A DNA stretch of 53,092 nt from Craspedostauros australis (Eukaryota), in NCBI GenBank assembly GCA_030167865.1, contig JALAGF010000198.1, forward strand, positions 1 to 53,092. The letters run 5' to 3'. Under the pieces are notes generated by a model. It ran no database searches. It saw only the letters and a program-made list of their open reading frames with translations, and was not told where the DNA came from. Below are positions 13,181-43,606 of this stretch, piece by piece; positions within the stretch are counted from its first letter, which is position 1, and each line of letters opens with the position of its first letter. A program made the position numbers and the translations under genes.

Positions 13181-15035
13181 ATGAACTCGAAGATGAACTC
13201 AAAGGCACCTCCCGCGGCCATCAGTCCGTGCCATGCGGCTGACAACTCATCCATGATGGATCGGAAACCAGCAGCGTTGAAATCGCCTCCACGTTCAGCA
13301 TCCTCCTCTTTCTCGGCAGCCAGAGACGTCTCCGTCTCACCCACGCAACCCAAACCGCCACTGCAGCGCACCTCCAGCGGATCTTCGTTGGTCCAGAAGC
13401 CTCCCGCGCATCACAAACGAGCGAAGAGCACCCAGGGCGTCCTGGAGGACCCGGTCGCGCCGCATCCTGCCGCATCGCAGAAGAATGAGACAAAGCAACG
13501 CAGACGGCACGTCGGCTTCCTTCCGCGGTGGCTGCTCAGCAAACGAGGCAACTGCTCGGAAACGACGACGGCTGGTTCATCCTTCGCGGTCTCCAAGCAA
13601 CCGCAGTGCGCAGCGCATGCCGCTGGAGAGACGGTGTATGATGGCAACTACAACATCTACGGGCAGCGGCATGGGCAGGGCGAGCTGGTGTGGAGCAACG
13701 GCGACATGTACAAGGGCAACTTCTTCAATGGGCTGCGGGATGGCCATGGGATCTTGCAATTTGCGGACGGTACGTGATCATCTGCTGTGTTCTGCTCTTC
13801 CTCGTGCTCGTTCTCGGATTGTGTCGGTGTCATTCATTACGTCATTGCGTATGTAACGCACTCTGCTACGTTGTTGAAGTTGACTTCATGCTCTGCCGCA
13901 CAGCGAGCACCAGTGATAAGCGATGCGACTGACCTCACCTCTCATCTCATGCCTTTTCGTCTCCATACTTCAACTCAATATAACTCAACTTCACTCAACA
14001 CCATTCCATCATGACCATCCAGGCTCCGAATTCAACGGTCAGTGGGACTGCAACGACATGCACGGCCATGGCCGCCGACGATTCCCAAACGGCAACGTCT
14101 ACGTCGGCTCGTACGTGCGCGGCAAACGCCATGGCTTCGGCAAGCTCTACTTCGCCAACGGAGATCTCTACGTCGGGCAGTGGGATCAGGATCAGATCCA
14201 CGATCTCACAGGCAACGCCAAGTACTTCCATCATGAGTCCAACTCGAAGCAGCCAACATCCAGCATCGCGCCGATCCCATTCACGTTCAAGCGCAACAAG
14301 GACCGCCACCAGGATGCGCCGTCGTCGCCATCCTCCGTCGATGCGGTGCCCGCCCTCACCCCGTCCGCGTGTTCGTACCCGGGACAAGAGACGGAGGAGG
14401 AGGAACCCTTCGACATCACGAGCGTCCCCACCATCGCGGTCTGCGCATTCCAGGGTTGCTACAAGAATGGCAAGCGTCACGGCAAGGCCAAGCTGCAGTA
14501 CCCCAACGGCGACCTGGAGTGCGTCGGGTACAGCCAGGGCAAGCTGGTCGGTCCCATCGTGCGGTGGTCGGCCAACCGCTGCAAGGCCTGGCTGTGCCAT
14601 GGTCCCAACGGCCGCATCAAGAAGAAGCTCACGATCATCGAGGCCGTCTCCTACGGCTACCAATGCGAGAAGGTCATGCAGGAGCTGGAGCCCAAGCAAT
14701 CGCAGGCGACACCCGCTGCTGTCGAGAGCAATGACCGCGTCCAGGAACGACGCAACGACGATGACCGCAAGCCCAGCGCATTGCCGCAGTACTCCGAATT
14801 CCATCGACAGGCCATCGTGGCATCCGCCATGGAGACCGAGGAACTGGATGTGCAGCTAATCATGGCATTGCATGATTCCATGCCGCACATCCCTCACGAT
14901 CCCGCTCCCACGGCCAGCGCGTATGCGGGATCCATGATGAGTCCGGTGCCTCGCAGCAACAACATCGCGGTCGGGATCGCCTTGGATGGGGAGGACTATC
15001 TCTTCAACAAGTGTTCAAACTCACGGATCGTGTAG
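13181..15035 (+). CDS. MORN-repeat protein, 2 exons (13181-13769, 14023-15035)
   Basis: MORN repeats YDGNYNIYGQRHGQGELVWSNGD, YKGNFFNGLRDGHGILQFADG, YVGSYVRGKRHGFGKLYFANGD. The GTACGT...CCAG intron (13770-14022) joins FADG|SEFNGQW in frame. Start codon inferred. Confidence 0.88.
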
Positions 15036-19664: not shown

Positions 19665-22600
19665 ATGCGCGCGTTTCACATGATGGTGCTGTTGGCGGCA
19701 TTGCTCGTCATGGCATTGCTCCATCCCACCGCCGAAGCTGTCGTCGCAACCTACCGTTGCCCAGACGCGGGCGACGACATCACCATCGACATCGCCCATC
19801 AGCACATCCAGCTGCCCAACTTCGATGGCGGCCTGTGCCTTCTCACGATCCACGACCACAACGCCATGCGGATCCCCGTCGCGCGCAGCTACGATGGATA
19901 CGATTGGGAGATCTCGGCCGGTCGCTTTGCCGACACCCTCACCGTCCACTGCCGCTTCGATGACTCATCTACTTGCGAGATGATCCTGCCAGCTCTCACC
20001 TCGATCGGCCAAACCTACGTCCTCTCATCCTACGAATCGTATCTTGCCACCAACTCGGAATCATCCGTTGTCCGCAACCAGCGCGCGACGGTCGCTCGAT
20101 TCTTGGAGCAGGCCTCGTTTGGAGTGCAGCGCGCGGACCTGGACGGGTGGGATTGGAACGGACATGGTGCAGATGATCGATCGAACGGCATCATCCCCTT
20201 CCGACGCTGGATCGTGCGCCAGATGGACGAATCCATCACGCCGACATCATCCCACCGTGGATTCTTTCGCCAAAGAACCAATCCACGACTGACCCAGTCG
20301 TTCATCGGTGGACTACCTGGACCCAAACCATGTGATGTCGGTGCACGATTCCGAAGATACGTTTGCGTGTCTGAGGATCGAGGCAAGGAACTCACCGTGT
20401 CATCGTCATCTGCGGGTGGCACATCGCTGTTCGCGGTGTCAGTGGATGGCATCGTCCGGACCTTCATGCAGACACAAATCCTCTTGGTGAAGTTCGACGA
20501 TTGGGATGCCAGCATCGATCCTTCGTCGGCCGTCCCAATACAGCTGGACACGGCGTACGTGATCTGCGGAGACGATGCCACGTTCTATCAGAACGGCGTG
20601 GGATCGCCCTTGCGCGTGAAGCCCTTTGTGGCCGATGCTGACAATGGCGATGGCGATCAGGATGCTTGTCTGCAGTTCCTGCGAGGCAATCCTGCTGTGT
20701 ACTTCCCACCATCTCACCTTGATGGCATTGCCGTGCTGGACTTTGGCACGTACGATTCCATCGAAGGCAGCAGTCAGCAGCATCTCAAACGATTGGATGA
20801 GGTGTCGTACGACAGCGAGTACTGGAAGCATTCCAATGACGGTGACGACTACATCGTCCTCAATGAACTAGAACGCCAGCTCTGCGATGCGTACGATCAT
20901 GCATTCATTCAAATGAGCGAACCGATCATTGCGAGATTCCAAGATGCGAACGATGCTGCTGACCCGTTCAAGTTCCTTCTCTACGATCCGAGGTTGGTGC
21001 TTCGCGAGAATACGGTGCAGAATCCATTGGAGGATGGTGGCGGTGCAATGGCGGCCGCATCTGGCGACGCCATGCAGTGCGCGAATGTCCCGCGATCCTT
21101 CCTCAACGAAGATCACTGCTTCCTGAGCACGGCGGCAACAGCGTGCAGCTCCGCAGCTCCGCCGGTGTTCTCTGTGCAGTTGACGCCCGAATTCCTCGCG
21201 GCGGCGCACGCCATCACGGGACGATTGGTACGTGTTGGTATCTGTCTCGTCGTTGCTTCCATGCCAGTGTATGGTAAAGTGTGCAATGCGCACAACATGC
21301 CAAATCCACAAACTCTCACGCTGCCATGTCCGCTTATTCTTTGCATTCAATGTTTCATGCATTCCTACTTGTATGCCAATGCTTTTGTGCCAATGCCATT
21401 ACTCTATTGCACTCCATCGCGTGCTTTAAACACCACACTACCGTGATCGCGCCATACTTGTGCAGTACTACAGCATTGCGGGATTGCCGCTCAGTGACGA
21501 AACCTACCGCGATCGCAGCAATAACCTGCAATACTTCCAGCCCTCTCCATGTGGTCTGCACAAGAACCGTTGGTCTCGCTGGATGCAAGTCGACCAAACC
21601 AACTGTCAAAACAACGACCGAGTCGTCACGGAAGAAACGGAGCATGTCTTCGCAATTCTCTTGCAACCATCCTTCGATGATATCCCGTCATCCTTGCCTG
21701 CCATCAAAGATGTCCAGCTGTACCAAACGCAGGAGTGCAGCAAAGCAGACCGCGATATTATTGATTTAGGATTCGTCACAGGGCTGGACGGTACGTGTTG
21801 GCAACACGTGCATTCGTTGCATTCCAATGTCTATGACTTCTCGCAATGGACCATCGACCACCCCGGCGGCGCTCAACAAATCGAACAGCCATCACGGGAC
21901 GGATCCACGGAGCTCGTCCTTCCGGCTTCGCACCAGGCTGACGGCAACCACCGTTTCTACGCGAACATTCACAGTCGTGCTGCCGAATACCCGTTGCTGG
22001 GGAAGCTTGGAGACTACGTTCCGTATTCAGATCTGCCGCAGCAGTTGCAAGTGCGAGAGATCCAACGCCAGTTCGGAGTTCTGCCAACAAACGAAGCACG
22101 CGGCGCTGTCGTCGTCTGTGGTTCGGATGGGGAGGTGGCCAATGATCCCTTCCTAGGGACAGGCTTTGAGATGGAGTACTTCGACGACGAGAGATTCCGG
22201 GATCACGCCACACCAAGCTCCTTCACCAAACGGCAGAAGAATACAATCTGGTCTCACATCGCCCTCTTCGGGAAGGATCAACTTCGTCAGCGCGTCGCGT
22301 TTGCTCTCAGTCAAATTTTGGTCGTCACTCCCGCGCTGCTCAACGACGAGCACGGCACCGAGACAACAATTGCCTTCTACGACATCTTTGTCAGGAATGC
22401 CTTTGGAAACTACCGCGATATCCTGAAACAGGTATCGTTCCATGACAAGATGGGCGAGATGCTGTCCTCCTTGAACTCCAAGAGCATGCAGTACTCCATC
22501 GATTACGGTGAGAAGGCTTATCCAGATGAAAACTTCGCGCGCGAGATCATGCAGCTCTTCTCCATCGGTCTGGTTCGACTGAATTTGGATGGCACGGCCA

Positions 22601-25600
22601 TGATGGATGTCCACGGCAATGCCATTGCAACGTACGACAACTCCGACGTACGGTCCTTCGCCAGAGCATGGACAGGATTCCAACGTCAGCAAGATCGTGG
22701 GAACTACGAGAATCGTTTTTCACGGGTGGATCCAATGCAAATCAGCGGGTAAGTCATGACTCTTTGAGGTCGCACGGACTGATCATGCGCGACACGTTGC
22801 CAACTCGAAATCCATGTACTCTATCCTCATCCTTATTGTGTTCTTCGCTTGCCTCTATGAACACACATGCACTCCACACATGAACACATGCACTCCACAC
22901 ATGAACACGTGTACTCCACACATGAACACGTGTACTCCATCTTCATTTGGATGTTTGCACCCCCACACGAGAGCAGGCGACGGCGCGATCCGTTCCCAAA
23001 ATCTGACTTGCATGGTGGATACATCGGTGACCGATACCCACTGTGTGCGGACATGCCGGACAAGCATTTCGTCAAGAAGGGTGCCACGTATCGCTTGCTT
23101 GGTTCGCGATCCCTCCCGGAGTTGCAAGAAGACAAGGCGGATTGGGAGAAGGATCCAGAAGTGCTTCGGCTGGTGTTGCAAATCGCATCTCCCTTGCGCG
23201 AAGCTCTGTGCTCATCTGCAGCGAACGATGGCGAATGCAGTTTTCCAGGCAAGGTTGTGCTCGATGCATCGCTGGACTATTCCAACCTCCACACCGGAGA
23301 CCATCCAGAAATGATGGTGGACACGATCCGAACTGTGCAGGTCCAATCATCACCGGTTCCGATCTACTATGAGTATGTCCAACCGGCGTGCGTCCACCAA
23401 GCCTTCTTTCCGAATGCGCGGCGTGTGATGGACTATGCCAACGATGACGGAGTCATCCGCAGCAACATGTGTGCTGACCCACGTACCGCGGTCGCAGTGG
23501 AAAGCTGCTGTGACGATCTGTGGTGGAACGACGGCGGATTCCCTTGGGGATACAAGAACTGCGCATACCAAGGTGAACGACTCTCATACGATTCGGCGGA
23601 GTCAAGGTGCCACAGCATCGGCAAGATCGCCTGCGACTACGCCCAGATGCGTCCCTGGAAGGTTGGCATTTGCGCCAAGGATGTCTGGTCCACCATCGAA
23701 CGGCTGCCGATCTACTACCACTGGACCACTGCATCATGCTCCATCCAAGTCAAGGTGAATAGCTATGGGGAGATCGCTATCGTCCACAACCCACCTGATG
23801 ACTTCGCAGGACGCCGCGAAGTCCCGTCAAGCGTTTCCAATCGGTCTGAGAACTATTTCAAAACGAGCTGGACCAATGGCAGGCATCCCAATCCATCGAA
23901 CGGCTGCGCCGCGGATGGCGCGGCGTGCATGGCATTCGACAATGCCTGCATTTGCGACACTGCCCTGATGGAAGAGCCCGTCTTTCACTCTGCGTCATCT
24001 CCAAGCGCCACCTACAACAGCATCCTCTCGCGTCTACACATTGGCGCCTTCGATCCATTTCTCGCAGCAAGTAGCGGCGAAGCGTACACCGACAGAGGCG
24101 ACTGCAACGGCAGCATCCCAAACGCAAAGGTCTTGACCAAGGATGGGGATTGCAATTCCTTGGACAAGAACACAGTGTTCATGGTGAAGGATGAAAATGG
24201 AGTGACGCGGTACTTGAAAAACATGCATTCGACCGTTCGTATCACTGGCAGCAACGGCGGCACAGCGGAGTATTCTTTCCGTAATCCTGTCCATTTCATT
24301 AGTCTCGTCGATCCTGAAGTCCGCGATGCGTACTACGAAACCGACGCCGTGCTGGACGAGTACTTCTTTCATCCGAATCATCCACCGTTCTTGGCAAGTC
24401 GAATGATCCAGCGGTTTGGCATTTCGAATCCATCACCACGGTACATCCACGCAGTGGCACAGGCGTACACATCCGGATCGTACAATGGGATTGGGACGGG
24501 CACATACGGCAATGTGGGTGCTTTGGTGGCTGCGATCCTTCTGGACCGAGAGGCTCGTTGCACTGTCCTCGATTCTGATCCCGGGCACGGCCAGCTGCGG
24601 GAACCCATCTTGAAGCTCATTGCTTTTCTTCGGAGCATGGAGTACCACCATGACAGTCCCATGCTGTGGCCGCTGTTGTCGGACCTGACGGAATCGATTG
24701 GGCAATGCGCCTACGAAGCGCAGAGCATCTTCTCGTTCTTCCTTCCCGAATTCGCGCCGGCTGGCTCAATGTCCCAGTCCTCGTTGCATTCGCCGGAAGC
24801 GCAAGTGTTGTCGCCGTATACTGCCATTGGGTTCCTGGATGGGGTGTTCACAACAGTCAAGCATGGTGAGTTTTCGCAACTTGAAATCGGACATGTATCA
24901 TGTTTGTTTGCATTTGCTTTGCATTCGTTTGCATTTGCTTGCATTTGTTTGCATGCGCCTGCTCTTGATCAAGCTACCGGAGTTGCTACGTTCTCGTACG
25001 AGCACTCGCATGGTTGCCAATTGCTGTTACTGTTACCGCTGCGATTATTGAAGACATCATTCTTGTATTCGCACGATTTGTATTTGTATTTACGTGCTCA
25101 CCTCTTTGCATCCGTGAGTGTGGACGTATTCACTGTTCCGTGTCGTTCTCCTACCTATGACGACACACAAACCAAAACCAAACTCAGGTATCGTGCCCAT
25201 GGATTGCCGCAGAGGGCTTGGCAAATTCAAGCCGAGGGGTCTGCGACAGTGCGTCTTGTCCACCTCGTTCGATGACACTTCCCGATCGTTCGGTGTTTTG
25301 CAGTATCGTGCGGACCCATTGAGTAGCGAGCACTTGGTGGACGAATTGGCGTTGCTGTTGACATCGTCTCGACTGCGCCAGATCAACCGAGACATGATTT
25401 TACAAGCGATCGAACCATTCATGTCGACCGATACGCCAAAGGCTACCCGACTTGCCCAGCAGCTCATGGCCGCCACGCCTGAATTCCATGCGACGAACCT
25501 CGTCCGCTCCAACGGCGAATCTGAAGCGTTACCGGACCCAGGCAGCGCGCTTGCGAGAAATCATCCATACAAAGCAGTGGTGTATTTGATGCTCGAGGGT

Positions 25601-27163
25601 GGCATGGACTCCTTCAACCTACTGGTTCCAAAGGAGGACTGCAATTCCAAGGACTTGTACGACGAATACAAGACAGTGCGCGGCAAGGTTGCGCTGAAGA
25701 AAAGCGAGCTGCTCAGCATCGATGCGGCTGGATCGAATCAGCCTTGCGATACGTTCGGAGTCAACGAGGCGATCCCCATTCTCAGGGATCTCTACGATGA
25801 CAAGGACGCAACCTTCTTTGCCAACACGGGTGTCCTCGGCAAGCCGGTTTCGAAATTGGACTGGGATGTAGGCACCAAATCTCAGCTCTTCTCCCACAAC
25901 AGTCAGCAAGATGAAGTGTACAGCATCGACGTGACCAACGAATTCATGAATACGGGAGTGGGTGGGCGCATCCTCGATGTGCTTCGCCAGCGCGGGTTTG
26001 TCGCATCGGCAGCGTCCGTGGGCACGAGCACCACGATGCTGTCTGCCCCGTACCATCCCGACAACGTCGTCCGAGAAATCCCACAGGATGAGCCAATCGA
26101 ACTGAATGGGCGACCGGAGGTAGAAGGGATGAATTCCTTGCTCCTCGAGATGAATACATTGTCGCAACCGGACAGCAGCGTATTCGGAGATCTGTGGTCA
26201 TCAGCCGTCTCCGACGCGGTCAGCAACAATGACGAGGAACTTCACATCTACAAGACGTTCACTGTCGGCAAGTTTCCATCGGGGGGTCTGGGCGAGAATT
26301 TCCGCTCGGTCGCTCAATGGATCAAGTCCAGGGATCACAGAGCTGTCGAACGGGAGGTCATCTTCGTTCGTCACAGCGGGTACGACCACCACGCGGTGAC
26401 CAGCAGCAGCAACCTCAAGAAGCAGCTGAAGGAAGTCAACAAGGCGCTGTCAGCGTTCGTCGCAGAGATGAAGGAGCAAGATATCTGGGACAGCATCGCT
26501 GTTGTGTCCGGATCCGAATTTGGTCGGACGTTGAGCCCAAACTCTGGTGATGGAACTGATCACGGGTGGGGAGGCCATGGCTTTCTGCTCGGTGGAGGCT
26601 TGAAGGGGGGCACCATCCTGGGAGAGTACCCCTCGGACCTCACGCAGGCCGGACCTAGCATCATTGATCGGGGCCGCGTCATCCCAAGCCTACCATTGGA
26701 AGCAGAGTGGCAGGCAATCGCACAATGGATGGGAGTCACGCACCAGAGTGACTTGGACACCGTGCTCCCCAACCGCGACAGCTTCGATCATTGCTCCTTG
26801 TTCTCTGACATGGATCTATTCCTGGACGGCAAAGTCCATCACTCGGCGTGCTCTGGTATCAACGACGACATGTCCATGGATACGCACAATACGACGTGTC
26901 GTGATCGGACCATTGCGATGCATCCAGCCACGATCGAGGAGATCAAAGTTGATGTCAGCGAGGCAAGCAGCAATGGCAGCGACACAGACAATGCCAACAT
27001 CGCCGTGTACAGTGACGGACGTGGGCCACAGTGCGAATGCCCATCGTCGAGCGCGGCATCAGCATCCAATGCGGGATTCTATTGGCGCTTTGTTCAACTC
27101 GCGATGCATGCATTCCTCTCTTCGCTTTTGTGCGCTGCCATCGTCTCTCCCTTGACGGGCTGA
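19665..27163 (+). CDS. Large secreted DUF1800 + DUF1501 fusion protein (~2236 aa), 4 exons (19665-21227, 21466-22748, 22977-24865, 25188-27163)
   Basis: Signal peptide MRAFHMMVLLAALLVMALLHPTAEA. DUF1800 motifs ARFLEQASFG, DQLRQRVAFALSQILVV, NAFGNYRDIL, PDENFAREIMQLFSIGL, SNPSPRYI, GQLREP. DUF1501 motifs LEGGMDSFNLLVP, LFSHNSQ, SEFGRTL, GTDHGWGG. Three GT-AG introns all join in frame (phases 0, 2, 1). Confidence 0.88.
22857..22939. repeat. 21-bp intronic minisatellite ATGAACAC(A/G)TG(C/T)ACTCCACAC x~4
   Basis: Seen directly inside intron 2 (22749-22976) of the DUF1800/DUF1501 gene. Confidence 0.92.
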
Positions 27164-28948: not shown

Positions 28949-31900
28949 ATGTCGCATGAAACCCTCTCAACGAGCAGCTCCTGCGAGGATGATCACTCTG
29001 GGGGAGGGGATGACCATTCCAAGGGAGGATCGACGTTCGATGTGGCATCGATGGGAACGAATCCATATCAACCATCAAAGGATGGAGGTGACGACGATGA
29101 CCTTGATCTGCACTCCACGATCGGAAGGAAGGAGGCCAATCGTGTGCGATGGTCCAAGATCCTCGTCTTCTGCGTCCTTTCCATCGCCACGGGGATCATG
29201 GCATACTTCACCAACGAGGTGATGTCTCGCGATGAGGAAAAGGCATTCGAGACCGAGGTGAGTTTCGTCCTGCGTGGGTCTTGGCTGGTCATCGCAGATG
29301 GATGATTTGGTTTCGTTGTGTCTCTGTATCTGCATCTTCATCTTCATCTGCATTTACATCTGCGTTTACATTTGTCGTTGCGGAAAGCTCTCAAAGCACC
29401 ATGACCTGATCTTCTGTGTCTAACACTTCATCCAACTCTAACTTATGTACGGCATGCGCATGGTGTACCATAGTTTTCCAACTTCGGCATGGAGATATTC
29501 GAAGCGTCGGTGATCACTGCACAGAACATCTTCGCGACCATCGAATCCATGAGCCACGGGATTACTTCCTTCACCCTCGCTACCAACGCAACTTGGCCAT
29601 TCGTCACAATACCTCACTACAGCTTCCGCGGGTTCCACCTGCTGGAACTGTCCGGTTCCAAGTACCTGGGGTTCTGTCCATTCGTACCCGTCGACGATCG
29701 ACAGGAGTGGGAAGAGTACTCCACGAACAACGCGGGTTGGATCAACGATCCGATCCCCGATAGCCTGTTCAACCCATCCTTCAAACCGGAGGTCACCATC
29801 ACCAAGGGACCAGTTGAGGGTGACGATAGCACAGCCAGCAATGAGACCGACACGCAGTCTGGACATTGGGGTGGCAATTCAACTCTCACCAGCACAAGCA
29901 TCCCGCCATTCATTCACCGGGTACCTGATGGCTCATCTTTGGTTGAATCAATGAGACTGCCCCCGGTCAAGGAGGATCAAGATTACGACGGCGATCACTA
30001 CGTCGTGGGATGGCAGACGACGCCGCCAACCGTGCCCATGATCAACCTCAACTTCTTGAGCATTGGCGATGACTTCACGAGAGTCTACGATCAACTGCGC
30101 AGGTCGCGTTCCCCAGTGCTTTCGGAAATGATCATCTATTCCAACGCACCGATCCCATACCCATCCGCATGGCCCAGCAGCTACCTCCTCCAGCCAATCT
30201 TCCCATCCTTCGATCAGAATGCGTCGATGGTAGGCATGTTTCTTGCCAGCGTCCCGTGGCACAAGTACTTCGAAAAGATCGTGCCGGCTGGAGCTGGGGC
30301 CATCGATCTGGTCATCAAGAGCACATGCGATCAAACCATCAGCTACCGCATAACTGGGCCAGACGTGGTGCACTCCGGGAATGGTGATCATCACGACAGT
30401 CAGTTTGACCACCTCGAGTTAATGACCCAATTTTCCGTCGTGCAAAAGGCAAGCGCGGCTGGGGTGTGTCACTACATGATACACCTGTACCCCACGAAAG
30501 ACTTTGAATCGGATTTCATCACGAGCACGCCATTGGCGTACACGGTTGGCGTCGTGCTCGTCTTTATGCTGACGTCTGCAGTCTTTCTCCTCTACGACTG
30601 CTTCGTGGAACAACGGCAGAAGAAGGTGATGCACTCAGCTGCCCGGACGAATGCGCTGCTCACATCTCTCTTCCCTGCCCAGTTCCGTGATCGCCTGATC
30701 GAAGACCATGATGCCGCATTGCAGGATGCGAGGGAAATCGACATGGAGGGCATGGAACCATCTGCGAGCATGTCCACACCGGCTCACGGTACAGGTCTCC
30801 TCGCACGAAGTCGGGCCGCCTTCCGTGGCAAGCCCAGAGGACGAGGAGGACTACTGCCGACCCTTGGTGCTACAACGTCATCTTCGAGAAACCTCAAGAA
30901 GCTAAACAGCTTCGCCGACTACGAGGCCGAAAAGGCGCGGCTGCTTCTATCGGAGCCCATCGCAGATCTGTTCCCCTCCGTCACGGTCCTGTTCGCGGAC
31001 ATCGCCGGCTTCACAGCATGGGCCAGCGTGAGGGAGCCATCCCAAGTCTTCACTCTCCTTGAGCAGATCTACAGCACGTTCGACGCCATCGCGAAGCGAA
31101 GAGGCATCTTCAAGGTCGAAACGATTGGAGATTGCTACGTCGCTGCATGCGGCCTTCCGAATCCTCGTGACGATCATGCCGTGGCCATGCTGCGGTTTGC
31201 GCGAGAGTGCCTGCATCAAATGACCCACTGCGCACAGTCGTTGGAAGTCCTTCTGGGGCCTGACACCGGCGACCTGACCATGAGGTTCGGTATCCATTCT
31301 GGTCCTGTCACTGCTGGCGTGCTACGCGGCGAGAAGACTCGCTTCCAGCTGTTCGGCGACACCGTCAACATGGCTGCAAGGATGGAGAGCACCGGCCTTG
31401 AAAATCGTATCCATCTGTCAGCCTCCACAGTCAAGCTACTCGCGGCCGCCGACAAGTCGCACTGGGCAGTCGCAAGAGACGACCTCGTCGAAATCAAGGG
31501 CAAGGGCAAGGTCCAGACGTACTGGGCATCCGGTCGTAGCCATGGACGTGGTCGTCGCGGTTCCCACGGCTCCGTTGAGTTGGCAATGTCCGCCATAAAT
31601 GTGGCAGATGCCGCCATTTCAGTCGACTCCAAGCATCCATTGAGCCAACAAACATCAACGCGATTCAAAGGCACCTCGCAAAGAAACTCAGGGTGCGCGG
31701 TGGCAACTACGACCTCCATTTCCATGGCTGGAACTATAACCACGCAGGCGAGGTCCATGTCGACGCTATCAACGATCACGGGAGCACCACCGCCGCCGCC
31801 TCTACTATCTACACCTTCATCTACATCACCGGTAATTCAACATAGGACCGTGGACAGCAAGCGCGCTCAGCAAGAGAAGAAGATGAAGCGCCTCGTGGAG

Positions 31901-33313
31901 TGGAATGCAGATGTACTGCAAGGCCTGCTGCAAAAGGTGGTCGCGATGCGAGATCCGCGCCCCACTTCAGCGAAAAGAAGCAGGCCGAACATGGCCAGCA
32001 ATGAATTCAGCCTATCAAGTTTCTCTGCCATCACACCTGAAGAAGGCAAGTTCAACCAGACCGTGTTAGATGAAGTGAAAGAAATCATCGAGCTTCCGGA
32101 CAGGGCCTCCAAGTACAAGTGCGACCCAGCGACTGTGAAGTTGGATCCCGCCGTCATATCCGAGCTGCGCGAATATGTCACCGCCATCTCGCAGATGTAC
32201 CGACACAACTCCTTCCATTGCTTCGAGCATGCCTCTCACGTCGTCCAATCTGTGACGAAGCTGCTGTCGCGTGTCGTGACGCCCGACAAACGAATCGACC
32301 GTGTCAACAGCGGCAAGGACAACGCCACCAGTAACAACGGCGAGAGCGAGGAATGGACGTACCAGCAGCAGGATATGAACAAAGGCAACAACAGAAACTC
32401 GGGCAGAACCAAGCAGCTGCACGAGTACACGTATGGGATTACATCGGATCCATTGACTCAGTTCGCTTGTGTGTTTTCCGCTTTGATCCACGATGTGGAT
32501 CACTGCGGCGTTCCAAACACGGTGCTCGTCAAGGAATGCATGGACGTAGCCCTCCACTACAAGAACAAGAGCGTCGCCGAACAAAACTCTGTCGATCTCG
32601 CATGGGAGCTCCTGGGCCACGACAACTTTGCGAACCTCCGACGATGCATCTGCGCGACGCAGTCCGAGCTCGAACGGTTCCGACAGCTCGTCGTGAACTC
32701 CGTCATGGCTACTGATATTGCCGACAAGGATCTCGGAGCCTTGCGCAAGGCACGATGGGAACGGGCCTTCGCAGAGCAAGATGACGGGGAGAGCGACTGC
32801 AACCGCCCGAAAAGCTTGGCGGATTCATCCGATGGGGTCAGCATTTCAGACGCCGCGCATAGCAGTGGCCCGAACGCCAAGCAGCAGTGCAGCAAGCACG
32901 AACGCCGATTGAGCCGTTTGATGGCACAGAACCGCAAGGCCACCATCGTCATCGAGCATCTCATCCAGGCGTCGGATGTGTCGCACACGATGCAGCACTG
33001 GCACGTGTACCTGAAGTGGAACGAACGGCTGTTCCATGAGATGTACGCAGCCTACCTGGCGGGCAGATTTGGAGAAGATGGTGCCAATCCGGCAGAGGGG
33101 TGGTACGCCGGCGAGCTGTCATTCTTCGACTTCTACCTCATCCCACTGGCCAAGAAGCTGTCCACCTGTGGAGTCTTCGGGGTTGCTTCGGACGAGTACC
33201 TGAACTACGCCACGGCCAATCGTCAGGAATGGGAGCGCAAGGGGAAGGATGTGGTACAGAGGTACATGTCGAAGTATCAGATGCAACAAGGATCTCAGCC
33301 AAGCAAGAAGTGA
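28949..33313 (+). CDS. Receptor-type class III (guanylate-like) cyclase fused to a class I cyclic-nucleotide phosphodiesterase, copy 1 (1382 aa; exons 28949-29257, 29474-33313)
   Basis: TM1 ILVFCVLSIATGIMAYFT, CHASE-like TWPFVT...WEEYS region, TM2, cyclase VLFADIAGFT/KVETIGDCY/GIHSGPV/LFGDTVNMAARMES, PDE FHCFEHASHV/IHDVDHCGVPN/MATDI/ASDVSH. Phase-0 intron GTGAGT...CATAG. Confidence 0.93.
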
Positions 33314-35613: not shown

Positions 35614-38600
35614 ATGGCGGAGCACAACCGCCATAGCCTCGACGAGAACATGTCAGACGGAACCAATTCATTGTCGAGCTTGGCTCACAATGGCAACTCG
35701 ATGATCGGATCTGAAATGGGCGCAGCGAGGATGAAAGAAAACGCGCAGCAGATGTCGCGTGACGAATTGAACGACGAGGAGGACCACTTCACAACAATTG
35801 GCGCGAAGGAGACCAACCGAGTTCGACTTTCCAAGTTCTTGGTGGTCTTCGTCCTGACTGTTGCCGCCGGGATCATGGCATACTTCACCTACAAGGTGAT
35901 GTCTCAAGAAGAGCAAGACTCTATGGAAACGGAGGTGAGTTTGGCAATATAATGGAAGCTCTGTTGATCTCTGTCTTTGTCTCTCTCTCTTTGAATCGCA
36001 TCGCATCGCCTCTCTGCTCATACGCACTTACACTTCAGTCCTCACCATCACCATTCCCCTGCCCTCTACTTCTGCCCCTGTGCATTGCACATATGCCATA
36101 CCATACCATGCATCATCATGTAACAGTTCACAAACTACGCCACGGAGATAGTTGAAGCATCAGTGCTATCTGCGCAGACCATCTTCGCCACGGTCGAGTC
36201 CATGAGCTTCGTCATCACATCATATGCTCTTTCCACCAACGCGACTTGGCCATTCGTCACGATCCCACACTACAGCTTCCGCGGTTTCCATCTGCTCGAG
36301 CTATCGGGTTCACGATACCTCAGCTTCTGTCCATTCGTTTCAAGTGAGAATCGAGAGAGGTGGGAAGAGTATTCCGTCGCCAATCAGGGTTGGATCAACG
36401 ATCCCGTTCCCGACAGCCTGTTCAACCCATCGTCTGGCTCGCCATCTGGCGCCTCCGGAGGTCCGTCCGGCACAAACAACCACGGCTCTAGTGGAGGTCG
36501 ACCCACTGGCGCTTCCGGTCCTGCCGATGACAGTGCTGGTGGCGGCCCACCTGCGTGGGTCACTGCTGGTTCCGACAGTACAGGAAGAGCAGGTGGAACA
36601 GCGGGCAGACCTCCGTCGGCTGGCGGACCTCCGTTGACCGACGAACAAGCCGGCAGCCAGGCTGTAAATGTAACACAACAAGGAGATAGGCCCACGGGGC
36701 CAAGTCGAGGTGGGGGTGGCATCCCTCCTTTCATCCACCGCCTACCTGAGGGCGCCTCATTCTCCGACTCGTTGAGATTACCGCCGGTTAGAGAAGAACG
36801 GGAGTTTGATGACTACGTGGTTTCATGGCAGACCACCCCACCTATTCAACCCGTGATCAACCTCAACTTCTTGAGCCTCAGCGATGGCTTCCTCACTGTC
36901 TACGATCAAGTGCGCAAATCAAATGTTCCAGCGCTCTCGGAAGTCGTTATATACTCCAACTCAACAAACATATCAAGAGGGGAATGGCCAACCAGCTACA
37001 TCGTGCAACCGATCTATTCATCCTTTGAGACGAACGCATCGATGGTAGCCATCTTCGTCGCCACCATTCCTTGGGACAAGTACTTCGAAAATATTGTCCC
37101 TGCGGGCGTCCAGCCCATCGATCTGGTGATCAAGAGCACATGCAAGCACACTATCAGCTACCGCATCTCTGGACACGAAGTCATGCATACTGGGGCTGGC
37201 GATTACCACGACAATCGATTCGACCATCTGGAGCTGTCCGTCAAGTTCTCAATCTTGGAAGATACCGAAGACCTGGACGTATGCCACTACTCGATGAGTC
37301 TATATCCAACAGAAGACTTTGAGTCTGAGTACATCACAAGCACTCCTTTGGTATACACGATCGTCGTCGTCCTGGTCTTCATGATGACTTCTGCAGTTTT
37401 CATTCTATATGATTATCTCGTTCAAGACCGGCAGAATACCGTGATGCATTCAGCTGTTCGAACGAATGCTATCGTCACATCTCTCTTTCCCGCACAGTTC
37501 CGCGATCGATTGATTGAGGATCATGACGCCGCAGTGAAGGACACAGAGAGGCACAAGGTTGAAGGCAGAGACCAGATCGCGCCATCTCGCGGCTCGAATC
37601 TTTTCACAAGAGGCAAAGCCATTCTCCGAGGAGCATCAAGACTGACAGGCAATGTGGCATCATCTGCCCGCAATCATGCGAGTGCCTCAAGGAAGATCAC
37701 CAGACGGATGGAAAGCTTCGTTGACTACGAGGCCGAAAAGGCGCGGCTGCTTCTATCGGAGCCCATCGCAGATCTGTTCCCCTCCGTCACGGTCCTGTTC
37801 GCGGACATCGCCGGCTTCACAGCATGGGCCAGCGTGAGGGAGCCATCCCAAGTCTTCACTCTCCTTGAGCAGATCTACAGCACGTTCGACGCCATCGCGA
37901 AGCGAAGAGGCATCTTCAAGGTCGAAACGATCGGAGATTGCTACGTCGCTGCATGCGGACTTCCGAATCCTCGTGACGATCATGCCGTGGCCATGCTGCG
38001 ATTTGCGCGAGAGTGCCTGCGTCAAATGGATGGCTGTGTGCAATCGTTGGAAGTCCTTCTGGGACCTGACACCGGCGACTTGACCATGAGGTTCGGTATC
38101 CATTCTGGTCCTGTCACTGCTGGCGTGCTGCGCGGCGAGAAGACTCGCTTCCAGCTGTTCGGCGACACCGTCAACATGGCTGCAAGGATGGAGAGCACCG
38201 GCCTTGAGAATCGCATCCATGTGTCCGCCGACACAGCCAAGCTGCTCGCGGCGAATGGCAAGTCACACTGGACTGTGGCAAGAGACGATCTCGTCGAAAT
38301 CAAGGGCAAGGGCAAGGTCCAGACGTACTGGGCATCCGGTCGTAGCCATGGGCGTGGTCGTCGCGGTTCCCACGGCTCCGTTGAGTTGGCAGTATCCGCC
38401 ATTCAAATCGAAAGCAATGGCATCGATCCGACTACAAGCGTGCAGACACCAGCCACTGCCAAACAAGACGCCGCTCACCCCGGCACATCATGTCCGATGA
38501 CAACTGCAACTTCCATCTCAATGGCAGGTAGCGGAACGCCACAGTCAGCCCTTGGATCAACCACGCCCATGACGGCAGGAGAAACACCTTCGCCGCCACT

Positions 38601-40164
38601 ACCGTCACTGACATCGCCAACGATGCATCGGAGTGACCACACGAATAGCAAGCAGGCCCAACAAGGAAGGAAAATGCAGCGACTTGTGGGATGGAATGCA
38701 GAGGTCCTTCAGGGATTGTTGCAGAAGGTGGTGGCGATGCGAGATCCACGATCCTCTTCTTCGTCGTCGTCGTCGTCGTTCACAAGGAGCCGACCGAACG
38801 CATCAGGTGATCATTCAGATCCGGCGAACTTCCTTGCAGTGACGCCTGGTGATGACAAGCCTGATCGCACCGTCCTAGATGAAGTGAAAGAGATCATCGA
38901 GCTTCCGGACAGGGCCTCCAAGTACAAGTGCGACCCAGCGACTGTGAAGTTGGATCCCGCCGTCATATCCGAGCTGCGCGAATATGTCACCGCCGTCTCG
39001 CAAATGTACCGACAGAACTCGTTCCATTGCTTCGAGCATGCCTCTCACGTCGTGCAATCGGTGACGAAGTTGCTGTCGCGTGTCGTGACGCCCGACAAAC
39101 GAATCGACTGCATCAGCAGCGCCGACACCAACGGCGACAATCGCACCGTGGAGTGGGCGTACCAGCAGCAGAGCATGAACAATGCGAACAACACTGGCGC
39201 GATGCCATTGGCATCGTTGTCACGCAAGGCATCGACCAGCACGGGAAGGGCCAAGAAGCTGCACGAGTACACGTACGGGATCACATCGGATCCATTGACT
39301 CAGTTCGCCTGTGCGTTCTCCGCCTTGATCCATGATGTGGATCACTGCGGCGTTCCAAACACGGTGCTCGTCAAGGAAGGCGTGGGCATCGCCATCCACT
39401 ACAAGAACAAGAGCGTCGCGGAGCAAAACTCTGTCGATCTCGCATGGGAACTCCTAAGTCATGACAACTTTGCGAATCTCCGACGATGCATCTGCGCGAC
39501 GCAGTCCGAGCTCGAACGGTTCCGACAGCTCGTCGTGAACTCCGTCATGGCTACTGATATCGCTGACAAGGATCTGGGAGCCTTGCGCAAGGCACGATGG
39601 GAACGGGCCTTCGCAGAGCAAGATGACGGGGAGAGCGACTACAACCGCACATGCAGCACAACTGACCATTCCGACACTGGTAGAACCAGCGACGGGGGAC
39701 AGGACAAGACCTCGCAAGGCGATCAGCAACAAGGCCGCACGAGCGCCAAGCAGCGCCGACTGAATCGCCTGATGGCACAGAACCGCAAGGCCACCATCGT
39801 CATCGAGCATCTCATCCAGGCGTCGGATGTGTCGCACACGATGCAGCACTGGCACGTGTACCTGAAGTGGAACGAACGGCTGTTCCATGAGATGTACGCA
39901 GCCTACCTGGCGGGCAGGTTCGGGGAGGACGGCGCCAATCCGGCAGAGGGGTGGTACGCCGGCGAGCTGTCATTCTTCGACTTCTACCTCATCCCACTGG
40001 CCAAGAAGCTGTCCACCTGCGGAGTCTTTGGGGTTGCTTCGGACGAGTACCTGAACTACGCCACGGCCAATCGTCAGGAATGGGAGCGCAAGGGGAAGGA
40101 CGTGGTACAGAGGTACATGTCGAAGTATCAGACGCAGCAAGGATCTCAGCCAAACAAGAAGTGA
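35614..40164 (+). CDS. Receptor-type cyclase/phosphodiesterase fusion, copy 2 (1452 aa; exons 35614-35934, 36127-40164)
   Basis: Same architecture and same intron position (…ETE|F…) as copy 1. Intron GTGAGT...AACAG (35935-36126). Confidence 0.93.
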
Positions 40165-40720
40165 GTGGGTGGGTGGATAGTAATGGGAGCAGGAGCTGAA
40201 GCAGACTTAGGAACTTAGATAAACACAGTACATTGATAACTGTTATCATAGATCAGATCAGATCAAAGCAATGCTATTTACAGTTGATGGAACGAGGGCG
40301 AGAGCGAGAGTAAGACACAACAAGATCACGAGTATAATACGAGCTATGCTCTTGTTCGTTTGCCTCTGCCGACACGGACACGACTCGTACGACTATCTCT
40401 TGCTTCGAGGGGATAGATACCATGCAACGAACGATTTGTTGCGAACTGTCGATTCCGGAGGGAAGTCTTGATCCACATCATCACTGCGGTGATCCACAGC
40501 GAAACTCTGTCACCATCTGCCCGAACTCATCCTCGCAACCATTCCCATCATCACAATCGAAGGCTCTGCACAAAGGTCGAAACAAGCAACCATACCAATA
40601 CATTACGCTGCGATATACTATTCTACAATACTTTCGTTGCATGCCATTGCACTGATCGACGGGGACGGTAACGAACAAACGAGAAGATCGAGACGCAAAC
40701 AACCTCAAAGACAGAGCGAG

Positions 40721-43606
40721 ATGGGATGTCCTGATTTCCTAGCGAAGGTACTGCCGTCCGCAGGCGAGGATGTGGAGCTTTGGCAGGTGCTGTTGGGGAT
40801 GATGGAGCAGGAGGTTTCCGTGCAAGCGGTGGGTGATAGAGGCACCGAGGACGACGGTGACGACAGCGATGATGGCATTGTGGCTATGGACGCCGCCGCA
40901 TCCAAAAGGGATGAACGCGAACGAAAGGACAGAAAGCGGAAACGATCGCAAGTCGGTACGAGTTGTCCGCGTAGATTGAGAGTTGGGGTGGATGTGTCGG
41001 CCTGGATTCACGCGGCCATGGGAGGCTACAAGTACAAAGGGCTTGCCGCTCACACCACCAACAGTAATGGAGGCCAGAAGAACCAAAATCGCAGCGCAAG
41101 ATACATCCAATTCAACAGCGAGAATGTAGTCGAGCGGTTTGTCCAATCCTGCGTGGCATACGTCATGAAGCGCATCTACCAGATCCAGAACGTGCATCCG
41201 CACAGAGTGCAGGTCCTCGTTGTCTTTGATGGTGCCACCCCGCCCAGCAAGTTGGAGGAAACGGAACGGCGCAAGGCTGCCGCAGCTGCAGCGAAGCGTC
41301 GGTCTGCTGCGGGCCGGCACTTCTGGCGCATTCACTATCATTTGCTGCAGGCACTTAGGCAGGCGCAGATCCCCTTCCTCGTCGCCCCGTACGAGGCAGA
41401 TCCCCAACTGGCCTTTCTCAGCCAGCAGGATCTCATCGATCTCATCATCACGGAGGACTCCGACCTCATCGCTCTCGGGGCCAGGAGCGTCTTGTACAAG
41501 TCCTCCGTCACTTCGGAGCTCACCGAAGCCGAGAATCGGTACGACGAAATCGTCAGGGGCAAGCTCCTACAGGGCATCTCCGACTTGGGTTGCTGCCAGT
41601 GGCTGCATCTCATGGACTTCACGCCCGTTATGATCGCGGCAGTCTTCGTGGCAGCCGGCTGCGACTACTGCGAGCGATTGCCGCGGAACGGCATCAAGAC
41701 GGCCGCCATCTTGGTGCGAGAAGCGTTCTTTTGCACGCCCAGCACTCGCACATCCGCCTTGGATCGTTTGATATCTGCCTTGTTGCAATCCACCTCGCAG
41801 GAGTTGACGGTAGCAGATCAACAGGCCTACCGTGACAAATTCGTGGCGGCCATGTTCTCGTATCGCCATCCCGTTGTCTTTGATCCCATCCGACGTTGCC
41901 AAACTGTCATGCGGCGAGATGGTGCACTGTCGGTTGGATCACCGAGGCCCCAAGAAACACTTCCAGTTGCGATATCGCACATCGACAGCCAGCAAGAGAG
42001 GCGTGGCGGTGCGGCCCCTGCACCCAGCACCGACCCAAGAATCCAAGGTGATCCGGAACTCACGGATTGCAACGACTATGCCTCGCTGTGCAACGATGGG
42101 GAACGGCGCAAGAACATCACGGGGAGGGTGGAAACCTCATCCCAGGAAGCCATCCGATTGGCGGAAGGCGGCTATTTTGAGGACAAGCCAGGCTGGAAGG
42201 AGGAGGCACGGCGTTTGGAAGAGCTGCGCAACGCCAGACAATCAACAACGCCGACTCGACAAGTGGAAGCAACTATTGCTGAAACGACAGCAACAGCAAC
42301 AACATTGGTACCGGGAGCCTCAGCACTACCCGTTGAATCTACCGAAGATCGTGCGATGGAGGTGGACGAAGACGGGATGGCGAGCGCGACCACAAATCAA
42401 GGAAAGGAACATCCCCAGCCCGAAGAGCAGGAAACGCAAGAACGGGCACAAACACAGGCACAGCAACAACAACAGCCGGCGCAAAAGGCATCACAGGAAA
42501 GCAGCCTCAGCAATCTCACCGCCAGCAGTGGTTGCGAAGAGATATCGTCACCTTCCGAGCCAAGCCAGCAAGAAGTGGATGCTCCAGCGCCAACCGCCAA
42601 AGCGACATCGCCACCATGCTCGCAGGACAGTCCCGACTTCATGGTGCTGGACGACTCGCAACCTAACACGCAAAGTGGTTTGGCGAATCCGTTGCGACGC
42701 GCCAGCGATGCTCATCTGCCGTGCGGGCAGCCGTCTGACGAGGAAGGGGCATTCAACGAATCGCAAGAGTCGGAAGCTGGCTCCGTTCTGGATGCCCAGC
42801 CTCATTCGCAGCCGAAGGGGCAGTTGGAAAACAGTGCGGATCCCAGCGGCAAATCCCAATCCTCCATTCTGGACATCGAACTGGAATCGGCAGAAGTGAC
42901 GGGCGAAGGCCTGTCGGCACTCCACGAAACGGCCGATACCGACAGCAGGGAGAAGAGTGGATTGGCAGAAGATGGCAAGACACATGATGGGGATGCGGAT
43001 GATGAAGACGATGATGAACCTGAAGACGGGAAAGGCGAGAAGACGGATGATGGGGATGATACCAATAAGGACGGCTTCTTCACCCAGATTCATGGAGACG
43101 GCACCAAGGAAGGTATCCCCAACGAGAATTCGACGGATACGTCGCCGCAGGATGAAACAACACAAACGCAATCGCAGACCCAACACGCGGAGGCACCGCC
43201 ACCGTCGCCTGATGGAGTTGGAAGCAACGATCAAGTTCCTGGTACCGGCCTTGCATTCGCATCGTCCGCAGCAAAGAAGAAATATACTGGCATTCCGCCA
43301 GAGGCAGAGATCATTGACTTGTGCAGTGACGACGACGATGATGATGGCGACAAGGACAACAGTGAACCTGATGACGACGACAACACAGTGGCTCCTGAAA
43401 CCAACCATCCACAACAAGATGAGAGTGCAGCACAAGGCAAATCCAATCCCAACGAGGCAACTGCCACCCCTGTTCGACGCGTTCGTCGTGATATCTTCCT
43501 CTCCGAGTCTTCGACATCAAGCTCCAATCGTTCCTGCACACAGGATGCCGCCGCACAGCAAATGGCCAGTCCCAATCTGCTCGCCTCGTTAACGCCTGAC
43601 GTCTAA
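40721..43606 (+). CDS. EXO1: XPG/Rad2-family 5' nuclease, exonuclease 1-like, with long disordered acidic C-terminus (961 aa)
   Basis: N-terminal MG..DFL, VGVDVSAWIH, VVFDG..PPSK, VAPYEADPQLAFL, IITEDSDL, GCDYCERL...GIKTA, F.H.VVFDP. Start set at the MG (40721) because family members begin this way. Confidence 0.85.
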   Translation: MGCPDFLAKVLPSAGEDVELWQVLLGMMEQEVSVQAVGDRGTEDDGDDSDDGIVAMDAAASKRDERERKDRKRKRSQVGTSCPRRLRVGVDVSAWIHAAMGGYKYKGLAAHTTNSNGGQKNQNRSARYIQFNSENVVERFVQSCVAYVMKRIYQIQNVHPHRVQVLVVFDGATPPSKLEETERRKAAAAAAKRRSAAGRHFWRIHYHLLQALRQAQIPFLVAPYEADPQLAFLSQQDLIDLIITEDSDLIALGARSVLYKSSVTSELTEAENRYDEIVRGKLLQGISDLGCCQWLHLMDFTPVMIAAVFVAAGCDYCERLPRNGIKTAAILVREAFFCTPSTRTSALDRLISALLQSTSQELTVADQQAYRDKFVAAMFSYRHPVVFDPIRRCQTVMRRDGALSVGSPRPQETLPVAISHIDSQQERRGGAAPAPSTDPRIQGDPELTDCNDYASLCNDGERRKNITGRVETSSQEAIRLAEGGYFEDKPGWKEEARRLEELRNARQSTTPTRQVEATIAETTATATTLVPGASALPVESTEDRAMEVDEDGMASATTNQGKEHPQPEEQETQERAQTQAQQQQQPAQKASQESSLSNLTASSGCEEISSPSEPSQQEVDAPAPTAKATSPPCSQDSPDFMVLDDSQPNTQSGLANPLRRASDAHLPCGQPSDEEGAFNESQESEAGSVLDAQPHSQPKGQLENSADPSGKSQSSILDIELESAEVTGEGLSALHETADTDSREKSGLAEDGKTHDGDADDEDDDEPEDGKGEKTDDGDDTNKDGFFTQIHGDGTKEGIPNENSTDTSPQDETTQTQSQTQHAEAPPPSPDGVGSNDQVPGTGLAFASSAAKKKYTGIPPEAEIIDLCSDDDDDDGDKDNSEPDDDDNTVAPETNHPQQDESAAQGKSNPNEATATPVRRVRRDIFLSESSTSSSNRSCTQDAAAQQMASPNLLASLTPDV

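Follow-up and report, generated by a model that had tools for sequence, protein, structure and literature searches.

A cytochrome b5-like module with two conserved histidines inside DUF1800 of a putative DUF1800-DUF1501 surface protein from Craspedostauros australis

Background

Why should a sequence that resembles the heme-binding core of cytochrome b5 lie inside a member of a protein family without known function? The question is raised by a gene of the alga Craspedostauros australis on contig JALAGF010000198.1 (assembly GCA_030167865.1), of which positions 1 to 53,092 of the forward strand were analyzed; this whole stretch of 53,092 nucleotides is referred to as the window. The gene is predicted to encode a protein in which the families DUF1800 and DUF1501 are joined. 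A preliminary description, made from the letters of the window, had pointed to a b5-like segment with two candidate axial His at positions 21793-22011, inserted inside the DUF1800 region, and had suggested that it is an extracellular module for electron transfer or heme binding. Here we examine the homology, conservation, predicted fold, setting and distribution of this module, and we weigh the explanations that have been considered for its presence.

DUF1800 and DUF1501 are large families to which no function has been attached, and no solved structure for either was found by sequence. In the passages of the literature that were covered, no function is assigned to DUF1800 or DUF1501 and no b5 domain is mentioned in them; the single co-occurrence of the term "cytochrome b5" with these families in that portion was an entry in a reference list. 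Bacteria of the Planctomycetes-Verrucomicrobia-Chlamydiae (PVC) group offer a separate clue. According to the sections of Kamneva et al. 2012 (PMC3542564) drawn upon here, PVC DUF1501 proteins are most strongly associated with partners that carry cytochrome c motifs (PSCyt1/2, PSD1) and that in some cases bear F5/8 type C domains as well; a part in electron transport was suggested for the DUF1501/PSCyt system of Planctomycetes and Verrucomicrobia.

Results and discussion

Homology to cytochrome b5

Positions 21793-22011 of the plus strand encode 73 amino acids without a stop codon, in the frame of the open reading frame (ORF) 21460-22752 and within exon 2 of the predicted gene; the opposite strand is interrupted by a stop. 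The peptide given in the preliminary description agrees exactly with this translation, and its second His does lie 24 residues beyond the His of HPGG (codons at 21859 and 21931), with L-G-K-L-G following. The b5 motif cited in the preliminary description, VYD.T.F with HPGG, is present in part, in that VYD and HPGG are found while S and W stand in place of T and F (VYDFSQW). When the 73-residue piece was compared with Pfam, a check which the preliminary description had proposed, Cyt-b5 (PF00173) was the sole family returned (E 1.1e-4), although at a score below the cut-off.

Comparisons that draw on more sequence gave a clearer answer. In a phmmer comparison of a 156-residue stretch with PDB sequences, 34 of the 35 matches at E<=10 were cytochrome b5; the best match was 2ibj (E 0.0043), and the alignments span from before V-Y-D to past the second His, both axial His included. 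A family profile was made from an alignment of the 134 matches that cover the module core (135 rows including the window). This profile aligned to canonical b5 domains with an hhalign probability of 97.1% (E 5.4e-11) over 46 columns, in which both axial His columns were matched. The canonical set comprised 39 domains from 7 multi-b5 matches and 17 of 66 bacterial b5 segments. Among 1.84 billion representative proteins, relatives of the module numbered 350 at E<=0.001, of which 37 reached E<=1e-10, with the best being 42-44% identical. The 150 matches listed consist of 143 family members and 7 true multi-b5 proteins, and 12 of those 143 members reach the Pfam Cyt-b5 cut-off of 23.7 bits unaided. 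A search of the ESM Atlas gave no usable match.

Because the Pfam result, the PDB matches and the hhalign comparison all name Cyt-b5, the homology goes beyond chance, and by these sequence comparisons the segment is well supported as the core of a real, divergent cytochrome b5-family domain. The family profile extends the putative module to approximately 128 residues (Table 1).

Conservation of the histidines and cysteines

Both His are present together in 126 of the 134 representative homologues, the mean pairwise identity of which is 35%, and in 110 of 119 long homologues that have the module. The preliminary description had set the conservation of the second His beforehand as a test of its proposal, and this residue is indeed retained in nearly all aligned sequences (Table 1). 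The two candidate ligands rank among the most conserved positions of the alignment, alongside the P-G of HPGG. Their spacing ranges from 22 to 40 across homologues and equals 24 in 35 of 126. The Cys pair is likewise conserved, with Cys at both positions in 125 of 134 representatives. Other conserved positions, counted over the 135 rows, are the W after the second Cys (118), the His of a C-W-x-H-V-H-P motif (126), W71 (127), I82 (127), P96 (130) and the G-x-x-G-D of the terminal strand (132, 123 and 123, respectively).

Predicted fold

An AlphaFold2 (AF2) model of 142 residues, made with 67 aligned sequences, has a mean predicted local distance difference test score (pLDDT) of 79.1, with values of 84-93 in most core blocks. 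The order of its strands and helices follows that of b5 from the C-W strand onward. An exhaustive VIA-align search of 48,161 PDB chains returned 12 chains at Z>=2, of which 11 were b5 domains; these were aligned over 53-60 residues (approximately residues 47-114 of the model) with Z 2.1-3.5 and a root-mean-square deviation of 3.0-4.1 Å. A second structural look aligned 50 chains, of which 8 reached Z>=2, and every one of these was b5. A model of a neighbouring region of the same protein (the domain at 20346-20984), used for comparison, matched 271 unrelated chains at Z>=2. The b5 fold that had been anticipated is therefore what the meaningful structural matches have in common, but the similarity is low, and we regard the structural evidence from the model as specific but weak.

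Position within DUF1800

In the predicted protein, Pfam recognizes a middle part of DUF1800 (PF08811) in exon 2, a C-terminal part of DUF1800 in exon 3 and DUF1501 (PF07394) in exon 4, and the matches to both families exceed the Pfam cut-off. The DUF1501 region has an additional weak match to Phosphodiest (E 0.012), and the motifs G-G-x-D, S-E-F-G-R-T and G-T-D-H-G of DUF1501 are retained in it. An N-terminal piece of DUF1800 in exon 1 was undetected by Pfam, even at E 10. We therefore rely for that piece on a hidden Markov model (HMM) of our own, built from 18 bacterial DUF1800 proteins.

On long homologues, the matches of this HMM form a collinear series of three: positions 39-94 lie well upstream of the b5-like module, positions ~131-299 follow it immediately, and positions ~307-499 come beyond a second large insertion. 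The piece 39-94 was found in 10 of 14 long homologues with independent E-values (i-E) of 1e-5 to 1e-3, and residues 124-160 of exon 1 in the window match it weakly (i-E 0.035). This piece is recognizable by an F-L-x-Q-A-S/T-F-G motif, which 16 of the 59 homologues with more than 600 residues have ~350-570 residues upstream of the module and which the window has as well. In a dinoflagellate homologue (P0258), the Pfam DUF1800 alignment itself (residues 611-1128, profile positions 1-217) surrounds the Cyt-b5 match at residues 818-840. Since pieces of DUF1800 flank the module on both sides and the Pfam alignment of P0258 encloses it, the predicted module is placed within a large insertion inside DUF1800, in agreement with the preliminary description.

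The same insertion contains, upstream of the module, a conserved beta-rich domain. Its AF2 model (residues 118-330) reaches pLDDT values of up to 95 in blocks; no Pfam family and no structural match at Z>=4 were found for it. A second DUF1800 insertion of ~450 residues (22977-24327, plus strand) is Cys-rich and splits the middle part from the C-terminal part. No Pfam family was found in it, and at its position homologues carry F5/8 type C, DUF7402, fn2 or CBM_35 domains.

Distribution among homologues

The set of long homologues consisted of the best 120 of 4739, with lengths of 749-2135 residues, and the module was found in 119 of these 120, in each case at one position inside DUF1800. Among the sources named for these proteins are diatoms (an MMETSP entry printed as "Staur...", with 56% identity, and Thalassiosira, Nitzschia, Fragilaria and Skeletonema) as well as Bolidomonas, Triparma, Pteridomonas, the labyrinthulomycete Hondaea and the dinoflagellates Effrenium and Symbiodinium. 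The proteins are named "hypothetical" or "DUF1501/DUF1800", and a precomputed PF00173 label is attached to 4 of the 120. By these sequence matches, the b5-like module is near-universal in eukaryotic DUF1800(-DUF1501) proteins. Among the 150 listed representative matches, DUF1800 exceeds its cut-off in 61 and DUF1501 in 12. Additional domains in homologues are CBM_1 (in L107 and P0258), CBM_35, CBM_4_9, WSC, PAN, fn2 and F5/8 type C. In one homologue of 3153 residues (P0074), a plastocyanin/azurin copper domain (residues 500-571; 25.2 bits, cut-off 21.2) directly precedes the module (residues 601-726).

Two further homologues have arrangements of their own. In P0087 (497 residues), the end of a DUF1501 domain (76-181) stands before the b5-like module (367-491); this inverted order may derive from tandem units or from another architecture. 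Residues 193-268 of P0123, in its N-terminal region, have a sub-threshold match to FGE-sulfatase (formylglycine-generating enzyme-like; 20.0 bits against a cut-off of 23.3), a family of some interest in view of the sulfatase-like character of DUF1501.

Bacterial and metagenomic sequences were also searched. A total of 83 bacterial or archaeal loci with the motif (L001-L083, e.g. L001:4471-6156) were considered as relatives of the module and rejected, as they carry ordinary b5 domains and none is linked to DUF1800. They belong mostly to Actinomycetota and Gammaproteobacteria, and the b5 domain is mostly C-terminal in proteins of ~560 residues with a V-Y-D-F-S/T-x-W motif; the one locus checked with Pfam encodes an N-terminal part of the FAD-binding monooxygenase type (FAD_binding_3) and a C-terminal Cyt-b5 (E 3e-26). 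A motif scan of metagenomes gave 7 contigs of 62-70% G+C, without bacterial context and most of them nearly filled by one long ORF, which look like eukaryotic transcripts. The module profile had no match in the 401 Pseudomonadota genomes searched, a result that was obtained without a positive control and proves little.

Comparison with known systems

With cytochrome b5, namely microsomal b5 and the b5 domains of sulfite oxidase, flavocytochrome b2 and Ncb5or, the module shares V-Y-D, an aromatic residue, H-P-G-G and a second His 24 residues on. It differs from them in several respects: a Cys-bridged N-terminal extension takes the place of the first b5 strand and helix, a stretch of the L-x-F-P-x-S-H type stands where b5 has the helix before the second His, and an extra conserved tail (L-G-R/K-L-G-D ... 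D-L-P) is present. Its setting is also different, as it is predicted to be extracellular and is inserted within another domain. Divergent b5 folds that are missed by standard b5 motifs are familiar from the MAPR/PGRMC-type domains, which are not known to have the His pair, whereas the algal module family keeps both His.

The PVC system, as far as it is described in the sections cited above, resembles the algal protein in having a heme-type domain on a DUF1501 partner and, often, carbohydrate-binding modules. The two differ in that the c-type heme motif of PVC bacteria is on a separately encoded PSD1 partner, whereas the b5-type module of the alga is inside DUF1800 and on one polypeptide. Pfam analysis of the ORFs of the window gave no sequence link between PSD1 and DUF1800. 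By analogy, the algal module may stand as a second and independent example of a DUF1501 partner that carries a heme domain.

Bacterial DUF1800-DUF1501 pairs (e.g. L084) have the same families in the same order as the alga, but as two genes and without large insertions. In a Bradyrhizobium locus, DUF1800 and DUF1501 are encoded by adjacent genes, and the DUF1501 gene begins with a twin-arginine-like signal. This adjacency indicates that the predicted algal protein is a fusion of a bacterial-type gene pair, and the fusion in turn argues that the bacterial pair works as one unit.

Fungal cellobiose dehydrogenase is a secreted enzyme with a tethered b-heme domain that serves as an electron shuttle, and some forms carry CBM1. 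Its cytochrome has a different fold and Met/His ligation, and its catalytic domain is an unrelated flavoprotein. We use it as a working analogy solely for the combination of a tethered b-heme module with CBM_1.

Proposed function and alternatives

Windows of 19 residues with a Kyte-Doolittle value above 1.6 are confined to the extreme N-terminus and the extreme C-terminus of the 2236-residue protein, the latter starting at residues 2213-2216, and the protein contains 47 Cys. It is probably secreted and anchored at the cell surface. The signal-peptide-like N-terminus, the C-terminal location of the only other hydrophobic stretch, the conserved Cys pair and the carbohydrate-binding domains of homologues make an extracellular location of the module plausible. 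The extracellular setting of the preliminary description is to this extent upheld, with the reservation that the two terminal signals were called by eye.

We propose that the module is a divergent b5-family domain with both axial His, which most likely binds one b-type heme. As a tethered domain, it would serve as an electron relay that connects the catalytic unit formed by DUF1800 and DUF1501 with an external donor or acceptor, and that unit would probably act on an extracellular glycan. The glycan target is suggested by the carbohydrate-binding, WSC, PAN, fn2 and F5/8 type C domains of homologues, and the copper domain that precedes the module in P0074 would fit an electron-transfer chain. 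We assign a probability of roughly 0.6 to this explanation as a whole, that is, a heme-binding b5 module in a DUF1800 insertion of a surface fusion protein with a role in electron transfer. Taken by itself, heme binding appears rather likely from the pattern of conservation, and electron transfer as the role of the module has about an even chance of being correct.

A number of observations weigh against this proposal. The Cyt-b5 scores of the window (22.5 bits for the 73-residue piece and 19.4 bits for the whole ORF) are below the Pfam gathering cut-off of 23.7, and the alignment covers profile positions 18-41 only, i.e. 24 of 74. Structural similarity is weak (Z of 3.5 at most) and leaves the N-terminal third of b5 unmatched, and Foldseek found nothing in the PDB at E<=0.001, its top match, a b5 domain, having an E-value of 2.4. 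Where b5 has the helix that leads up to its second His, the module has a stretch with Pro. One or both His are missing in 8 of the 134 representatives and 9 of the 119 long homologues; the first is lost in 4 of the 8 top-scoring representative fragments (P0002, P0005, P0006 and P0009) and both are lost in P0002, while other close relatives show H-D-G-G or H-I-G-G. Heme ligation would thus be dispensable in some copies. None of the 18 Pseudomonadota DUF1800 proteins sampled has the module, from which it follows that the catalytic unit can work without it. Finally, DUF1501 is part of a hydrolase superfamily whose members are not known to need electrons.

Several of these points are what would be expected if the module had kept a b5 fold without heme, as a ligand-binding domain or a purely structural spacer in the DUF1800 insertion, comparable to b5-like domains in which bis-His ligation has been lost. 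The sub-threshold Pfam score with a remodelled second half, the weak fold match, the loss of His in some close relatives and the bacterial DUF1800 proteins without the module can all be read in this way. It is difficult, on the other hand, to see how both His would be kept in 94% of representatives and 92% of long homologues, at a mean identity of ~35%, without a shared ligand, and a copper electron-transfer domain stands beside the module in one homologue. We consider a heme-free module unlikely. Less probable still is that heme is bound not for electron transfer but for the capture, storage or sensing of heme or iron at the cell surface. The preliminary description had allowed for such a role, the predicted extracellular or surface location would suit it, and both the existence and the direction of electron flow are themselves hypothetical. 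Yet in 119 of 120 homologues the module occupies one fixed site inside DUF1800, an arrangement that speaks for a role tied to that enzyme, and the cytochrome c motifs on DUF1501 partners point to redox chemistry. In addition, six-coordinate b5 sites with two His ligands are as a rule a mark of electron carriers and not of heme-transfer proteins.

The suspicion that the motif is a chance match in a linker, with no domain at all, could arise from the sub-threshold score and the mere 24 HMM positions that Pfam aligned. It is refuted by the 350 homologues at E<=0.001 (37 of them at E<=1e-10), by the conservation within the family and by the hhalign probability of 97.1%, and it is further at odds with the confidently predicted core, whose structural matches are almost exclusively b5; we give it practically no weight.

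A heme-binding, electron-transferring module, as we propose, would have consequences beyond this gene. A conserved, built-in and mostly unannotated b5-like domain leads to a testable cofactor hypothesis for the chemistry of DUF1800 and DUF1501, and this clue agrees with the independent one from PVC bacteria, the cytochrome c motifs on DUF1501 partners. If the proposal is true, a so far unrecognized redox activity on glycans at the cell surface would be relevant to marine carbon cycling, given that these proteins occur widely in diatoms, other stramenopiles and dinoflagellates and carry carbohydrate-binding modules. Carried to its furthest, the analogy would make the eukaryotic DUF1800-DUF1501 proteins a new class of heme-coupled redox enzymes at the cell surface, with marine polysaccharides or other extracellular glycans as substrates. 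This class could also take in the very abundant bacterial DUF1501 systems with cytochrome c-motif partners, in which case the c-type heme would have been replaced in algae by a b5 domain, which the secretory pathway is able to load. We offer this wider view as speculation that is doubtful at present.

Gene structure and genomic context

The gene consists of exons 19665-21227, 21466-22748, 22977-24865 and 25188-27163, which when joined give an open frame of 6711 nucleotides (Table 1). The three introns were placed solely from their GT..AG ends, the open frame and homologue alignments. Across introns 1 and 2, the alignments of intron-less homologues continue uninterrupted (tblastn; P0003 at its residues 263/264 and P0015 at 701/706). 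The acceptor of intron 3 was picked by reading frame, and it is the least secure of the three junctions. Within intron 2, short direct repeats of a ~21-nucleotide unit (22860-22940) give rise to a false ORF start and a peptide with repeats.

Table 1 Features of the predicted DUF1800-DUF1501 fusion gene in the window
Feature	Position	Strand	Basis and remarks
DUF1800-DUF1501 fusion gene	19665..27163	+	4 exons, 3 GT..AG introns, product of 2236 residues
Signal-peptide-like N-terminus, 25 residues	19665..19739	+	Hydrophobic; signal peptide called by eye
DUF1800 N-terminal helix piece, F-L-E-Q-A-S-F-G motif	20034..20144	+	Upstream of the insertion; weak match to bacterial DUF1800 HMM
Beta-rich, Cys-containing conserved domain	20346..20984	+	Same DUF1800 insertion as the b5-like module, upstream of it
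Intron 1	21228..21465	+	238 nucleotides, GT..AG; homologue P0003 aligns with residues 1-263 to 21230 and with residues 264-692 from 21469
Cytochrome b5-like module, ~128 residues	21697..22080	+	Family HMM, exon 2 residues 78-205, 129.5 bits; core 21793-22011
First Cys of conserved pair	21736..21738	+	Cys in 128/135 aligned sequences; probable disulfide
Second Cys of conserved pair (C-W of strand before V-Y-D)	21796..21798	+	Cys in 132/135 aligned sequences
Predicted first axial His (HPGG at 21859-21870)	21859..21861	+	His in 129/135; aligns with canonical b5 HPGG His
Predicted second axial His	21931..21933	+	His in 130/135; aligns with second axial His of b5
DUF1800 middle part	22069..22722	+	Pfam E 1e-27, profile 56-206 of 419; bacterial HMM positions 134-281
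Intron 2	22749..22976	+	228 nucleotides, GT..AG; short direct repeats inside
DUF1800 C-terminal part	24328..24801	+	Pfam E 1.8e-12, profile 224-360; bacterial HMM positions 311-438
Intron 3	24866..25187	+	322 nucleotides, GT..AG; homologue alignments end at 24867 and restart at 25292
DUF1501 domain, alkaline-phosphatase/sulfatase-like	25571..26635	+	Pfam E 2e-33, 116.5 bits, profile 2-338 of 390
Hydrophobic C-terminal tail	27089..27160	+	After a Ser/Ala/Asn/Gly-rich stretch; membrane or glycosylphosphatidylinositol-type anchor signal by eye

Judged together with its neighbouring genes, the window is eukaryotic nuclear DNA. The neighbours, all on the plus strand, include a MORN-repeat protein (13923-15035), an XPG-family nuclease (40637-43606) and a weak NCBP3-like protein (45275-47782). 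Two tandem fusions of a guanylate/adenylate cyclase with a 3',5'-cyclic nucleotide phosphodiesterase are found at 29489-33313 (Pfam E 2e-49/3e-23) and 36163-40164 (7e-49/2e-23).

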